From positions 16,800 through 80,799 of the forward strand of contig CAWGSV010000023.1 of assembly GCA_963825365.1 (NCBI GenBank): a stretch of DNA of 64,000 bases. The letters are read 5' to 3'. The stretch comes from an uncultured Acidobacteriota bacterium (GTDB lineage: Bacteria; Acidobacteriota; Terriglobia; Acidiferrales; UBA7541). Shown here piece after piece: positions 2,864-47,103 of this stretch. The translations under genes and the position numbers were made by a program. The notes beneath the pieces are model-generated. The model saw only the letters and a list, made by a program, of their open reading frames with translations, was not told where the DNA came from and made no database searches. The stretch's first letter is position 1. Every line of letters begins with the position of its first letter.

Positions 2864-5326
2864 TTAATTCGATTGCCGGATGCGCATTCCGTAGAACGAT
2901 CGGTAAACGAAAATGAATGACACCACAAAGAATGCGGCCGAAAGCGAACGCGTCAGCACACCGCCGGAGGTGGCCGTCAATTTCACGGCCAGCGATACGG
3001 CCAGCAAGCCGAAAAGCGTGGTGAACTTGATGACCGGATTGAGCGCCACGGAAGAAGTGTCCTTGAACGGATCGCCAACCGTATCGCCGATGACGGTTGC
3101 GTCATGCAGCGGCGTTCCTTTTTGCTTCATCTCCACTTCCACGATTTTCTTGGCGTTGTCCCATGCGCCGCCGGCATTGGCCATGAAGATGGCTTGATAC
3201 AGACCGAAGATGGCGATGGAGATCAGGTAGCCGATGAAGAAGAACGGATCGAGGAAGGAAAAAGCCAGCGTGGCGAAGAACACCGCGATGAAGATGTTCA
3301 GCATGCCCTTCTGCGCATATTTCGTGCAGATCTCCACGACTTTCTTGCTGTCCTCGACGGATGCTTTTTCCACGCCCTCGAGCTTGATGTTTGCCTTGAT
3401 GAACTCGACGGCTCGGTACGCGCCGGTGGTCACGGCCTGTGTGGAAGCGCCGGTGAACCAGTAGATCATGGCGCCGCCGGTAATCAGGCCGAGCACGAAG
3501 GGAGCGTGCAGCAGGGAAAGTTTCTCGACGTTGGCGGTGAGCCCGTTGGTCAGCGCCATGATGATCGAGAAAATCATGGTCGTGGCGCCCACAACAGCGG
3601 TGCCGATCAGCACCGGTTTCGCGGTGGCCTTGAACGTGTTGCCGGCTCCGTCGTTTTCTTCGAGCAAATCCTTGGCGCGCTCAAAGTTGGCGTCGATGTT
3701 GAAATCCTTCTTCAACTCTTCCTTGATGCTCGGAACCTGCTCGATCAGCGAGAGTTCGTAGACCGACTGCGCGTTGTCCGTGACCGGGCCGTAGGAATCG
3801 ACCGCGATCGTTACGGGCCCCATGCCCAGGAAGCCGAAGGCCACAAGCCCGAAGGCGAACACGGGCGCGGCGATCATCAATCCGCTCAGCCCCATGCGCG
3901 CAAACAGATAGCCGACGGACATCAGGAAAACCATGGCCATTCCCAGGTAATAGGCCGAGAAATTTCCGGCCACGAAGCCGGACAGAATTCCGAGCGACGC
4001 GCCGCCCTCTTCCGCCGAGGTCACCACTTCTTTTACGTGCCGCGATTCGGTGGAGGTGAATACTTTCACGAGTTCCGGAATCACCGCGCCGGCCAGCGTG
4101 CCGCAGGAAATGATCGAAGCCAGCTTCCACCATTGCGTGGTGTCGTCCGCTAAGCTGCGGAATGATGACGGCCGAAATCGCATAGGTCATGGCGATGGAG
4201 ATAAACGAAGTGAGCCAGACCAGAGGTGGTCAGCGGCGTTTCGAAATTCATTTTGTCGACATTGCCAAAGCGAGCCTTGGCGATCGCGGCGTTGATGAAA
4301 TAAGCCGCGGCGCTGGAGACCAGCATGGCAATGCGCATCACGAAAATCCACACGAGCAATTGAACCTGTACAATCGGATCCTTCACGCCCAGCAGGATGA
4401 AGGTGATCAGCGCGACGCCCGTGACGCCGTAGGTCTCGAAGCCGTCGGCGCTCGGCCCAACCGAGTCGCCAGCGTTGTCGCCGGTGCAATCGGCGATCAC
4501 GCCGGGGTTGCGCGCGTCGTCTTCCTTGATCTTGAACACGATCTTCATCAAGTCGGAGCCGATGTCGGCAATCTTGGTGAAGATGCCGCCGGCGATGCGC
4601 AGCGCAGCCGCGCCCAGCGATTCACCGATGGCAAATCCGATAAAGCACGGCCCGGCATAGTCGCCGGGAATGAAAAGCAGAATGAAGAGCATCATCAGCA
4701 ATTCCACGCTGATCAGCATCATGCCGATGCTCATGCCGGCCTGCAGCGGAATCTGATAAATCGGGAAACGGCTTGCCGCGCAGTCCGGCGAACGCCGTTC
4801 GCGAATTCGCAAACGTATTGACGCGAATGCCGAACCATGCCACGCCGTAGCTGCCCGCAATTCCGATCAAGCTGAACAGCAGAATAATCGGCAGCGTGGT
4901 GCTGATCGGCTTGCGCACGGGCGACAGCACGCCGAAATACAGCACGATCACGACGGCGATGAACACCCACAGGAAAAGCAAGAACTTGCCCTGCGTGATG
5001 AGGTAGGTCTTGCAGGTTTCGTAGATCAGCTCGGACACTTCGCGCATCGAGCGGTGCACCGGCAGGTTCTTCAGGCGGTTGTAGATGGCCAGGCCGAAGA
5101 TCAGGCCGAATACGCAAAACAGAATCCCGATCAGCAATAGCTTGTGCCCGTCGATCCCCAGAAACGAGACTTGCGAGAGATCGGGAAGCTTGAGGGCTGC
5201 TTCGCCGCCGGCGGTTTCCTGAGCCAAAGCGGCCGCAGCGTTCAAAAATGTCAGCAGGGCAACAGCCGCGCCTGCCATCGCGAATCGGCTTCGAAGCGGG
5301 CTAAAGCCCGCGAGCCACGTACGCAT
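2864..5326 (-). pseudogene. hppA: membrane H+/Na+-translocating pyrophosphatase, reading frame broken three times (possible assembly indels)
   Basis: Three consecutive ORFs (4622-5353, 4150-4860, 2864-4183) plus a short bridging frame (3681-4190 ORF N-terminus MTYAISAVIIPQL) together give one PPase. Motifs include GIRVNTFANSRTA, DNAGDSVGP, GGAWDNAKK and DTVGDPFKDT. Frame breaks near 4762, 4226 and 4154. GGAGGA lies before ATG 5326. Confidence 0.85.
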
Positions 5327-44592: not shown

Positions 44593-45510
44593 CTACACCG
44601 GATCGGGCATGGCGAGGGTTAGGGCGTCGGGCACAATTCGAAATTCGACAGGTAGGCACCCGGCAGGTTCTCCATCCACCTGGATCTGAACTTGTGACGC
44701 GCTGTTGGAGATGCAGTGCAGGGAACTGGTCTTAATGAAGCGAACGTACCGCGCGCCACGCAGTTTCCCGGCCCAGATCAGCGGCAAATAAGCGATGTAT
44801 CGCCAGGCGCTGCGCGTGGTAACAAAGGCCAGTTCGAATTCCGGCTGCATCAGTCCGGCTTCGGTTGTAATTTTGAATGGCCCGCCGTAATGCTTGGTGC
44901 GGCCTACGATCACGAGAGAGGCGTCAATGTCAGGCGCACCGCCCGCCATGGATGTTCGAAACATGGGGAAATCGTATTTCGACAATTGGCGAAAGCCTTC
45001 CTGCCAGTAAGCCAGGATGCCGGCCTTGAGCTTTATTTCCGGTCGCACGGCGGACACCAGCGCGCCGTCCGCACCTGCTCCCGCCAGGCTCAGGAAGTAG
45101 CGCGGCTCGCCGCTGGATTTTTCCGGGATGGCCAGGCCAAGCGCGATGCGCCGGTAGGGAGCGCGCACGATCAGTTCCGCGGCGCGCGGTAAGTTCCAGG
45201 GCAGCGACAACTCTTTTGCCAGGACGTTTGCCGTACCCGCAGGCAAAACTGCCAGCGGCACCTGGCTGCAGGCCAGGCCGTTTACAACTTCATTCACCGT
45301 GCCGTCGCCTCCGCACACGATCACCAATTGTCGCGATTCTTCCACGGCGCGGCGCGCCATGACGGTGGCTTCTCCTGCGGCCGTGGTGTTCTGAAGCTCC
45401 GTCTCGATCCCGGCGTCGCGGAATATGCGGCGCGCCTCATCCAGTTGCGGCACGCGGCGTCCGCCGCCTGCCGTGGGATTGACGATCAACACTGCGTCTC
45501 GAACCTGCAT
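44593..45510 (-). CDS. diacylglycerol/lipid kinase (YegS/BmrU family)
   Basis: LIVNPTAGGGRR...VIVCGGDGTVNEVVNGL. ATG 45510 is preferred; the ORF-track extension to 45840 crosses a hairpin repeat. Confidence 0.85.
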   Translation of the reverse strand: MQVRDAVLIVNPTAGGGRRVPQLDEARRIFRDAGIETELQNTTAAGEATVMARRAVEESRQLVIVCGGDGTVNEVVNGLACSQVPLAVLPAGTANVLAKELSLPWNLPRAAELIVRAPYRRIALGLAIPEKSSGEPRYFLSLAGAGADGALVSAVRPEIKLKAGILAYWQEGFRQLSKYDFPMFRTSMAGGAPDIDASLVIVGRTKHYGGPFKITTEAGLMQPEFELAFVTTRSAWRYIAYLPLIWAGKLRGARYVRFIKTSSLHCISNSASQVQIQVDGEPAGCLPVEFRIVPDALTLAMPDPV

Positions 45511-45635
45511 AGCCAGCCGATCGGCTCCATTCAAAGAGCGCGCATTCAAAGAGATCGTAAGATAACTTACCCAGAAGCAAAACGCACAGCCTGTTTCGCG
45601 CGGACGAACTAAGTTTACAACGGCGGAAAGAAAAA

Positions 45636-45756
45636 GCTTTAACACAGAGGACACAGAGAAAAGAGGAGAAAAGCGAAGAAAAGCAACCCTGAGCAAAATC
45701 TGCGCTTTCACTTTCTCCGTTTTTCTCCTCTTTTCTCTGTGCCCTCTGTGGTGAAA
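45636..45756. repeat. CACAGAGG-type long hairpin repeat
   Basis: GCTTTAACACAGAGGACACAGAGAAAAGAGGAGAAAA ... TTTTCTCCTCTTTTCTCTGTGCCCTCTGTGGTGAAA inverted arms. Related to 50577-50671. Confidence 0.85.
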
Positions 45757-45796
45757 TCCGAGCATTTGTGGTTCATTGGCCGCGCCCGCTAAATCC

Positions 45797-45825
45797 TTGA
45801 CATTAGGCACGTATCTGCGTATCCT
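45797..45825 (+). promoter_or_regulatory. sigma-70-like promoter TTGACA-17 nt-TATCCT for the aroF leader
   Basis: TTGACA at 45797-45802, 17-nt spacer, TATCCT at 45820-45825. The leader ATG follows 10 nt after the -10 box, so the transcript is near-leaderless. Confidence 0.5.
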
Positions 45826-45834
45826 CACACCCGC

Positions 45835-45927
45835 ATGCATTCACGCTATTATTCTTGGTTCGCCTTTACGTACCGCTTCCCATGGTTGGGAAGCGGCCAG
45901 GGGCGGATCGCGCGCAGGACGAGGTAA
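45835..45927 (+). CDS. putative aromatic-amino-acid leader peptide (30 codons)
   Basis: Manual translation: MHSRYYSWFAFTYRFPWLGSGQGRIARRTR*. Codons 5-17 contain 3 Tyr, 3 Phe and 2 Trp. Embedded in alternative hairpins upstream of DAHP synthase. Too short for the ORF track. Confidence 0.55.
   Translation: MHSRYYSWFAFTYRFPWLGSGQGRIARRTR
45873..45896 (+). promoter_or_regulatory. attenuator segments 1:2 hairpin (CCGCTTCCCA tggt TGGGAAGCGG)
   Basis: Perfect 10-bp stem overlapping the leader codons Y-R-F-P/W-L-G-S-G. Segment 2 can alternatively pair with 45967-45980. Confidence 0.55.
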
Positions 45928-45966
45928 AGCGACAAGTTAGATAGCGCGAAAAGAATCCCAGAACTG

Positions 45967-46002
45967 GCCGCGAGAACCCACAGGGTTCGCGGCTTTTTTA
46001 TT
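45967..46002 (+). terminator. intrinsic terminator (attenuator segments 3:4) upstream of aroF
   Basis: GCCGCGA(ga)ACCC aca GGGTTCGCGGC followed by TTTTTTATT. Sits in a divergent intergenic region 80 nt before the aroF ATG, so it terminates nothing but the leader transcript. Confidence 0.7.
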
Positions 46003-46082
46003 GCCCTGAATTGTCCCTGAGGGTCGCGCGCCGGCTACCGCAAGAGCCGGCCGCAAAGCAGACAGCCAAAGGAGCTTTTCCG

Positions 46083-47103
46083 ATGATCGTCAACATGTCA
46101 GCAACGGCAACGAAGGAGCAGGTACAACACGTCATGGACAGAATAAAAGAATGCGGATTTCTTCCTCATCTGATTCAAGGCGCCGAGCGCACCGTCGTCG
46201 GCGTGGTTGGAAAAAATCGCGGACGGCGCGCCGAAGTCGAAGCGCTTCGTGTCGCTCCGGGTGTGGACGACGTTATCTCCATCTCGCAACCCTTCACCCT
46301 CGTCAGCCGCGAGCTGCAGCCCAAGCGGCACGGTGGTGGACGTGGGCGGCGTAAAGATCGGCGGGCCGGACCTCGTGGTGATCGCCGGGCCGTGTTCGGT
46401 CGAGTCGCGCGAACAACTGATGGAAACGGCGCGCGGAGTCAAGGCCGCCGGCGCGCACCTGCTTCGCGGCGGCGCCTACAAGCCGCGCACTTCGCCCTAC
46501 GATTTCCAGGGCCTTGGCCTCGAGGGGCTCAAGATTCTGACGGAAGCGCGCGAAGAGACCGGCCTGCCCATCGTCACCGAAGTGATGGGCGTTGAAGACC
46601 TGGACGCAGTCGTCGAGTACGCGGACATGATGCAGGTGGGCGCGCGCAACATGCAGAATTATCCGCTGCTGCGCCGCCTGGCCACGGTGCCGCGGCCCGT
46701 GCTGCTGAAGCGCGGCCCTTCGGCCACCATCAAGGAATGGCTGCTGGCGGCTGAGTATTTGCTGTCCGGCGGAAATCCCAATGTTGTTTTGTGCGAGCGC
46801 GGAATCAAGACCTTTGACGCCGAATTAAGAAACACGCTGGACCTCGCGGGCGTGGCGCTGGCCAAGGAACTTTGCCACTTGCCGGTCATGGTCGATCCGT
46901 CGCACGCCACGGGACGCCGAAGCCTGGTGCCTGCGGCCGCGCGCGCGGCTGTGGCCATTGGCGCGGACGGCATCATCGTTGAAGTGCATCCGTGCCCGGA
47001 GCGCGCGCTGTCCGACGGCCCGCAATCGCTGGATTTGGCGGGATTCGCCGCCATGATGAAGGGCCTTCAGCCCGCCATGGCGATGGCCGCAGCAGGGCGA
47101 TAA
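46083..47103 (+). pseudogene. aroF: 3-deoxy-7-phosphoheptulonate (DAHP) synthase, class I-beta with N-terminal ferredoxin/ACT-like regulatory domain; one frame break (possible assembly indel)
   Basis: MIVNMSATATKEQVQHVMDRIKECGF... regulatory domain in ORF 46011-46595 joins [30 protein letters not shown]...[20 protein letters not shown]...DPSH in ORF 46207-47103. Extra base at about 46326. SD AAAGGAG lies before ATG 46083. Confidence 0.85.

Follow-up and report, generated by a model that had tools for sequence, protein, structure and literature searches.

The window analysed here is a stretch of 64,000 nucleotides (nt) from an uncultured Acidobacteriota bacterium (contig CAWGSV010000023.1 of the assembly GCA_963825365.1). 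It carries aroF, the gene for a type I-beta 3-deoxy-D-arabino-heptulosonate 7-phosphate (DAHP) synthase, and, upstream of it, a short open reading frame (ORF) rich in codons for aromatic amino acids, followed by segments that can pair in alternative ways and by a T-tract. This is a genuine and conserved cis-regulatory element, very probably a leader-peptide transcription attenuator of the classical, ribosome-mediated kind that acts on aroF. The following features lie at the locus:

45797..45825 (+): promoter-like site, with the -35 hexamer TTGACA at 45797-802, a 17-nt spacer and the -10 hexamer TATCCT at 45820-25 (10/12 matches)
45835..45927 (+): leader ORF, MHSRYYSWFAFTYRFPWLGSGQGRIARRTR, 30 codons plus the stop codon at 45925-27; relatives have homologous or analogous ORFs
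45847..45885 (+): putative regulatory codon cluster Y5, Y6, W8, F9, F11, Y13, F15 and W17 (3 Tyr, 3 Phe, 2 Trp)
45873..45882 (+): segment 1 (CCGCTTCCCA, as RNA CCGCUUCCCA), 5' arm of the anti-antiterminator hairpin, within codons Y13-P16
45887..45913 (+): segment 2, of which UGGGAAGCGG (45887-96) pairs with segment 1, or parts of which pair with segment 3
45944..45949 (+): 3' strand GCGCGA of the inner antiterminator hairpin, pairing with UCGCGC at 45908-13; invariant in the closest relatives
45956..45980 (+): segment 3, comprising UCCC (45956-59), CUGGCCGC (45963-70) and CCCA (45977-80); overlaps the terminator 5' arm
45967..45993 (+): intrinsic terminator hairpin (3:4), GCCGCGA-GA-ACCC, loop ACA, GGGU-UCGCGGC
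45994..46002 (+): terminator U-tract TTTTTTATT (T6ATT), the expected 3' end of a predicted attenuated transcript of ~165 nt
46068..46074 (+): Shine-Dalgarno sequence AAAGGAG of aroF, 8 nt 5' of the ATG, conserved in the three closest relatives (L001-L003)
46083..47103 (+): aroF, type I-beta DAHP synthase with an N-terminal ferredoxin-like domain (PF00793, E = 3e-79; PF18152, E = 1.5e-17)

The first-pass annotation of this DNA had named the promoter, the ORF with its eight aromatic codons, the hairpins and the T-tract, and a direct check of the sequence found every one of them at the positions it gave. Two details were corrected: the gap between the -10 hexamer and the leader ATG is 9 nt instead of 10 nt, and the aroF ATG is at 46083 instead of 46084. 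The eight aromatic codons, 5' of the DAHP synthase gene, are crowded into leader codons 5-17. Over both strands of the window, the leader ORF is the best-scoring aromatic-rich short ORF, and among the short ORFs scoring at least 6 it is the only one with a run of at least five T within 120 nt downstream.

The leader RNA folds with an energy of -69.5 kcal/mol, which beats 200 of 200 dinucleotide shuffles (z = -3.75). In hairpin 1:2, CCGCTTCCCA (45873-82) and TGGGAAGCGG (45887-96) form a perfect helix of 10 bp (dG -18.8 kcal/mol). The terminator hairpin 3:4 (dG -16.9 kcal/mol) was described before as having an 11-bp stem; the hairpin is present at 45967-93, with a stem of 7+4 bp interrupted by a 2-nt bulge. 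Note that a consensus scan caught only the upper terminator hairpin and the T-run, and that the full stem comes from a separate hairpin-plus-T-run search. The third pairing, between segments 2 and 3, had been given as GCGGC/GCCGC plus TGGG/CCCA; it exists, but constrained folding revealed a larger antiterminator. Besides UGGG (45887-90) with CCCA (45977-80), the latter comprises an 8-bp helix of GCGGCCAG (45893-900) with CUGGCCGC (45963-70), pairs of G 45903 and GGA 45905-07 with UCCC 45956-59, and the inner hairpin of UCGCGC (45908-13) with GCGCGA (45944-49). The whole segment 2-to-3 fold has a dG of -36.3 kcal/mol, compared with the values given above for 1:2 and 3:4. These pairings are mutually exclusive, as the 2:3 antiterminator overlaps the terminator 5' arm, and the 1:2 anti-antiterminator overlaps the aromatic codons.

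For the comparison with other genomes, we used 80 genome loci and 80 metagenome loci encoding relatives of the enzyme, with the gene starts placed via the N-terminal domain. Among public sequences, the closest relatives (95-89% identical in the catalytic domain) belong to metagenome-assembled genomes with the names Candidatus Acidiferrales or Acidiferrum, which places the window in the class Terriglobia of Acidobacteriota. An ORF was counted as aromatic-rich if it was short, contained at least 5 aromatic residues in a 12-residue span and lay within 300 nt upstream. Such an ORF precedes the DAHP synthase gene in 65% (45/69) of the genome loci, whereas the control rates are 0% for the reverse complement, 2.6% for dinucleotide shuffles and 1.8% for other 300-nt segments of the same loci. 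The same ORF arrangement is seen in ~35 of the 66 usable metagenome loci. A hairpin followed by a T-run is located between the aromatic ORF and the gene in 52 genome loci and ~40 metagenome loci, and leader ORF and terminator are always found directly upstream of and co-oriented with DAHP synthase. The loci carrying the element are titled Terriglobales, Bryobacterales/Bryobacteraceae and Acidiferrales/Acidoferrum, i.e., three orders of the class Terriglobia. This conservation of short aromatic ORF and terminator across Terriglobia, with the covariation described below, supports the proposal of the first-pass annotation that a ribosome-mediated attenuator with a mixed Phe/Tyr/Trp leader is placed in front of DAHP synthase.

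Leader and terminator are absent from the Blastocatellia/Pyrinomonadaceae DAHP synthase loci (L005, L013-L015, L018, L019, L027, L041, L045, L079). In L041 and L045, the ORF directly ahead of the DAHP synthase gene has a pheA-like ACT domain at its end, which points to operon control of DAHP synthase there instead of leader control.

Phe, Tyr and Trp codons are all present in 42 of 50 leaders (in total 173 F, 103 Y and 58 W). Furthermore, the leaders differ from the adjacent DAHP synthase genes in their codon choice (50 loci from L001-L080 plus the window): the Phe codon UUU reaches 75% in the leaders vs 35% in the genes, and the rare Arg codon CGA 31% vs 9%. This preference could mean slower decoding, or it could simply be a constraint of RNA pairing (CGAUUU is a conserved motif).

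The leader ATG at 45835 has no Shine-Dalgarno sequence, and almost no locus among the relatives surveyed has a Shine-Dalgarno-like sequence before its leader ATG. In the Bryobacterales-type loci, a conserved promoter TTGCA-17-(T/C/G)ATACT ends ~9 nt before the ATG, its -10 hexamer mostly starting 13-17 nt before it; in the window, TATCCT begins 15 nt 5' of the leader ATG, i.e., at the same position (-15) as their TATACT. The promoter-like site of the window would thus put the predicted transcript start ~0-3 nt 5' of the leader ATG. Because of the fixed ~9-nt spacing between -10 hexamer and ATG and the lack of a Shine-Dalgarno sequence in the relatives, the comparison supports a leader message that would be leaderless or nearly so, with a 5' end that coincides with the AUG or is at most ~3 nt away from it, as the term "nearly leaderless" in the first-pass annotation had implied.

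The stretch from the ATG to the U-tract is nearly invariant in the window and L001-L003, including the part behind the stop codon, whereas the promoter region and the 80 nt 5' of aroF diverge. What is conserved here is the RNA with its aromatic codons and not the peptide. Indeed, L002 has a 1-nt deletion just past the aromatic run, which puts the C-terminal half of the ORF in another frame with a different stop codon and leaves the RNA unchanged. The Terriglobales-type leaders keep a hairpin closed by CCGCU...AGCGG with differing inner pairs (CCCA/UGGG, ACUUCA/UGGAGU, CUUCUGG/CCAGAAG, ACCGG/CCGG and others); between them, these leaders use all three frames to read the CCGCU stem, with aromatic codons on its 5' arm every time. 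Hairpin 1:2 is kept in groups A and B; as helix 3 of the covariation analysis, it has 97% of its cells paired and two pairs changed on both sides. The inner pairs of the Terriglobales group were read by per-sequence hairpin extraction, since the 5' arms are out of register in the MAFFT columns of this group. The z-scores of the individual 1:2 duplexes against shuffles are weak (mean ~ -1) and were not used as evidence. Conserved RNA and aromatic codons combined with a non-conserved peptide fit a regulatory leader and not a functional peptide.

The terminator stems differ in three clades (GCCGCGAUC..., CCCACUCG... and CCAGCCUCC...), and each segment 2 complements the terminator 5' arm of its own clade. 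In the Bryobacterales type, segment 1, ACGCCAnCUCG(UUUCGAUUU), is part of the ORF and located either at the F-R-F-W codons or immediately before them; segment 2, CGAGUGGCGUUGG, is found at the stop codon or immediately behind it, segment 3 is CCAACCCACUCG, and segment 4, CGAGUGGG, is followed by a U-run. In the Terriglobales type, segment 2 is GUAGCGGCUGCGG...AGCUUG and segment 3 is CAAGCU...GCCGCaaGCCGCGAUC. The duplex of segment 2 with its own terminator arm has a mean energy of -17.3 kcal/mol, compared with -11.8 kcal/mol for swaps between clades, and the own partner is better in 49 of 50 loci. A terminator that has changed together with its segment 2 is seen in the metagenome loci L081 (1023-1187) and L084 (82-246) as well. 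Both have the same leader type (..FAFTGRFSW..) with wholly different terminator stems (CCAACCUCCC... and CCAGCCUCCAC...), and in both the own segment 2 folds onto the own segment 3 when segment 1 is masked and segment 4 is not yet made; they represent a natural "swap" for the model.

Covariation of the antiterminator was assessed on the group-A alignment (A4) of seven sequences (the window, L001-L003, L081, L083 and L084). In this alignment 85% of the antiterminator cells are paired (79% for the shuffles, no more than 43% for slid controls), and seven pairs are changed on both sides; none of 500 shuffles reaches this number or the 85% pairing, with the caveat that the sequences are few and that the tested structure was derived from the window itself. 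One of the compensatory changes is A:U to G:C within the 8-bp helix GCGGCCAG:CUGGCCGC in L083. The inner antiterminator hairpin (helix 5) is paired in 95% of the cells, with two pairs changed on both sides. A long-range helix of 45840-57 with 45935-49, which is part of the minimum-energy fold, was dropped as a core element: 53-65% of its cells are paired in the seven group-A sequences, and the inner antiterminator hairpin gives a better account of why GCGCGA at 45944-49 is conserved.

In the mechanism which we infer from these elements, transcription would begin on the leader AUG (45835) or no more than ~3 nt from it, and the ORF would be read as a leaderless or nearly leaderless message. If charged tRNA-Phe and tRNA-Tyr (possibly also tRNA-Trp) are ample, the ribosome would pass the aromatic codons and reach the stop codon at 45925. 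Behind this undelayed ribosome, segments 1 (45873-82) and 2 (45887-96) would pair and leave segment 3 free to form the 3:4 terminator (45967-93 plus the U-tract), so that transcription would stop at ~46000. If aromatic aminoacyl-tRNA is scarce, the ribosome would stall with its A site at codons ~9-15 and cover segment 1. Segment 2 would then pair with segment 3 as soon as the latter is made, through UGGG:CCCA, GCGGCCAG:CUGGCCGC, GGA:UCC and the inner UCGCGC:GCGCGA; this antiterminator would block the terminator base, and RNA polymerase would continue into aroF. According to this mechanism, changing GCGGCCAG to GCCCCCAG would abolish read-through, and a compensatory change of CUGGCCGC would restore it.

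To model this kinetic process in thermodynamic terms, we let the ribosome cover 15 nt on the upstream side and 8-16 nt on the downstream side of the first base in the A site. The antiterminator fold with a broken terminator base was obtained only with the modelled A site at codons ~9-15 (45859-45879, including F11, Y13 and F15); with no ribosome, with the ribosome at codons up to 8 or from 16 onwards, or with the ribosome at the stop codon, the model gave 1:2 and the full terminator. In the folding calculations, masking of segment 1 always led to pairing of segment 3 with segment 2 as long as segment 4 was not yet made. The terminated state would depend on 1:2 re-forming behind the undelayed ribosome.

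Several observations weigh against this attenuation mechanism or against parts of it. The terminated and antiterminated folds are nearly isoenergetic, the outcome flips if the footprint is changed by 1-3 nt, and the terminator wins at equilibrium for L081 and L084. With folds so close in energy, the switch must be kinetic, as in trpL, with 2:3 forming before segment 4 is transcribed. The Trp codons W8 and W17 fall just outside the modelled effective stall range, and control by Phe and Tyr is therefore the better-supported reading of the window leader. The earlier idea that all three end products act at once would agree with the codon content of the leaders but not with the modelled stall range of this one; Trp control of the window leader is plausible from the conservation of Trp codons throughout the family. 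As to the promoter, the hexamers TTGACA and TATCCT were looked for in L001-L003 and are not conserved. The consensus scan found two promoter-like sites where 0.3 were expected, and the second, weaker one (45824-45852, CTCACA-17-TATTAT) has its -10 hexamer (45847-52) on the Tyr5-Tyr6 codons; if used, it would shift the start of the transcript into the leader ORF.

The statistics of the concerted changes have to be read with caution as well. The cores of the 2:3 and 3:4 helices are invariant in the Terriglobales group, where column covariation comes down to one flanking pair. The terminator core GCCGCG/CGCGGC is invariant in 26 loci, and the core together with GCGGC of segment 2 is present in the 59 tabulated type A/B loci; since the GCGGC:GCCGC core does not vary, a covariation test on it is uninformative. 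In addition, the sequences are related by descent, so that the shuffle and swap statistics overstate their independence, the effective number being 3-4 clades. The argument from concerted change really rests on these 3-4 clades, which have altered both partners together.

Finally, the aroF frame is broken in the window by one extra G at 46327/46328: the site 46323-46329 reads AAGCGGCACGG, where L001-L003 have CAGC-GCACGG, and the ferredoxin-like domain (from 46083) and the catalytic domain (in the frame of 46330) are out of frame with each other. As the remaining aroF is 95% identical to that of L001, the extra G is likely due to misassembly or to a mutation that arose very recently.

Three other explanations of the element were considered. 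The terminator/antiterminator alternatives would suit any ligand-, tRNA- or protein-sensing switch (riboswitch, T-box-like or TRAP/PTB-like) in which the short ORF is incidental or untranslated, and the conservation of nucleotides rather than peptide from ATG to U-tract and the lack of a Shine-Dalgarno sequence before the leader ATG would agree with such a switch. However, a start codon and 5-8 in-frame Phe/Tyr/Trp codons are conserved across clades with unrelated RNA, the aromatic codons are retained even in leaders that read the same stem in a different frame, and the fixed distance between -10 hexamer and ATG, typical of leaderless messages, accounts for the lack of a Shine-Dalgarno sequence. 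Moreover, Rfam 15 (including Trp_leader RF00513, Phe_leader RF01859, leu-phe_leader, Bacteroid-trp, T-box RF00230 and the known riboswitches) gave no match to the leader in 45400-46300 at E-values up to 10, and none of these families matched in ten related loci at E-values up to 0.1. We consider a sensing switch of this kind improbable.

Slightly less probable still is an arrest peptide whose nascent chain (e.g., through the recurrent [FY]-R-[FY]-x-W) would stall on a free aromatic amino acid, similar to TnaC, rather than respond to tRNA charging. An Arg between aromatic residues does recur (YRFPW, FRFW, FRYWF), and the enrichment of CGA in the leaders could be quoted in its favour, but the Arg codons are explained by RNA pairing, as CGC belongs to the CCGCU stem and CGA has its pairing partner in the UCG of GAAUCGAG. 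Furthermore, length, spacing and sequence of the peptides vary widely, and TnaC-type logic switches genes on under an abundance of the amino acid, the opposite of what a biosynthetic gene needs. The idea that the ORF encodes a functional small aromatic-rich peptide with its own promoter-like site and with the hairpin and U-tract merely as its terminator, linked to aroF by position only, is the least credible of the three, given the frameshifted C-terminal half with conserved RNA in L002, the wholly different peptides of the clades apart from their aromatic content, the constant position directly upstream of and co-oriented with DAHP synthase, the conserved antiterminator overlapping the terminator, and the lack of any matching family for seven leaders in NCBIfam and five in Pfam (E-values up to 10).

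As for the surroundings of the element, the upstream neighbour is a divergent DAGK/YegS-like kinase gene that probably starts near 45510. On the other side, aroF is followed by a convergent gene encoding a beta-propeller protein, and aroF is therefore monocistronic in the window. L001 has a tRNA gene (2854-2926, +) at the place of the beta-propeller gene, ~300 nt past the end of its DAHP synthase match (1779-2543); thus, synteny 3' of aroF is not conserved. In L066, a group II intron domain match (3855-3929, -) with 38.8 bits, below the gathering score of 40, is located ~90 nt past the end of the DAHP synthase match (3001-3765). Between the kinase gene and the leader promoter of the window there is a 44-nt inverted repeat (45638-45755; arms 45638-81 and 45712-55, 89% complementary, with a 30-nt spacer and one purine-rich arm), which may be a small insertion; no further copies of it were found in the window or in the 160 related loci. 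Rfam matches to miRNA precursors at 45641-45752 are spurious and caused by this unrelated inverted repeat.

The closest functional parallel is known from Corynebacterium glutamicum, where the DAHP synthase gene aroF is attenuated through aroR, which encodes a leader peptide with Phe-Tyr-Phe (Mentz et al. 2013, PMC4046766; PMC11802643; PMC7356990; see also Neshat et al. 2014 on the aroR-aroF attenuator, as cited in PMC11802643 and PMC7356990). In this system only Phe limitation, and not Tyr limitation, is reported to have had an effect (PMC11802643). Both elements have mixed aromatic codons directly upstream of a DAHP synthase gene, at the same pathway step, and in aroR-aroF transcription is raised by ribosome stalling when aromatic aminoacyl-tRNA is limiting, the same logic as proposed here. 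However, aroR is from Actinomycetota and has three regulatory codons without Trp, whereas the Terriglobia leaders are from Acidobacteriota and have 5-8 such codons, normally including Trp. The acidobacterial leader likely arose independently of aroR, the two being compared by functional description only. The remark of the first-pass annotation that DAHP synthases of E. coli are repressor-controlled agrees with the literature (PMC11802643), though E. coli is not the relevant comparison.

With trpL and pheL of Enterobacteria, the element shares the 1:2 / 2:3 / 3:4 logic, the regulatory codons in or beside segment 1, the intrinsic terminator and the proposed control by charged tRNA. These leaders respond to a single amino acid, their ORF is led by a Shine-Dalgarno sequence and preceded by a 5' UTR (untranslated region), their stop codon lies between segments 1 and 2, and they control operons of terminal branches; in contrast, the window element precedes the common first step, and its ORF, unlike that of trpL, runs through segment 2 and stops in the antiterminator loop. 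Leaderless leader peptides have been described for trpL1, leuL and ilvL in Streptomyces lividans (PMC8079986) and for ilvBNC in C. glutamicum (Morbach et al. 2000, as cited in PMC4046766). As in these actinobacterial leaders, the ORF here is placed at the predicted 5' end of the transcript, has no ribosome-binding site and is followed by hairpins and a U-run; the actinobacterial starts were mapped by RNA-seq, whereas ours is deduced from the distance between -10 hexamer and ATG, and the amino acids and genes differ.

Multivalent attenuators, in which one leader has codons for several end products of a branched pathway, are represented in E. coli by thr, ilvGMEDA and ilvBN. Similarly, several tRNA pools could act on one terminator in the leaders described here; the E. 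coli leaders have Thr/Ile or Ile/Val/Leu codons, and the combination here is Phe/Tyr/Trp. To our knowledge, the classical multivalent examples do not include a Phe/Tyr/Trp leader acting at the entry to the shikimate pathway. No description of such an element in Acidobacteriota was found in the literature, a search that covered few papers from subscription journals and whose negative outcome is no proof of absence. The design is new for this lineage of Acidobacteriota, not in kind, and the understanding of the mechanism itself is unchanged.

Acidobacteriota are among the most abundant soil phyla, and their regulation is almost unstudied; almost none of the attenuators predicted for Acidobacteria in the survey of Naville and Gautheret (2010, PMC2965389) have associated functions. 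The leaders described here make up a testable regulatory RNA family with ~100 examples over three orders, which could enter Rfam and genome annotation pipelines, although the clades differ too much in sequence to share a single covariance model. Control of the first common aromatic step by tRNA charging would not be peculiar to Corynebacterium and appears to have arisen independently. The clades, which differ in their terminator and in having segment 2 inside or after the ORF and keep the logic, provide a natural experiment in attenuator evolution. A more far-reaching reading, to which we give slightly less than even confidence, is that of an ancient multivalent attenuator common to the class, in which one leaderless ORF would read the charging of tRNA-Phe, tRNA-Tyr and tRNA-Trp at the entry to the shikimate pathway in Terriglobia, tuned by non-preferred codons; if true, this would give Acidobacteriota their first attenuator family with an assignable function, and the element would be a natural sensor with three inputs. 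For this soil bacterium itself, the most likely role of the element is that the first enzyme of aromatic amino acid synthesis would be switched on only when those amino acids are scarce.

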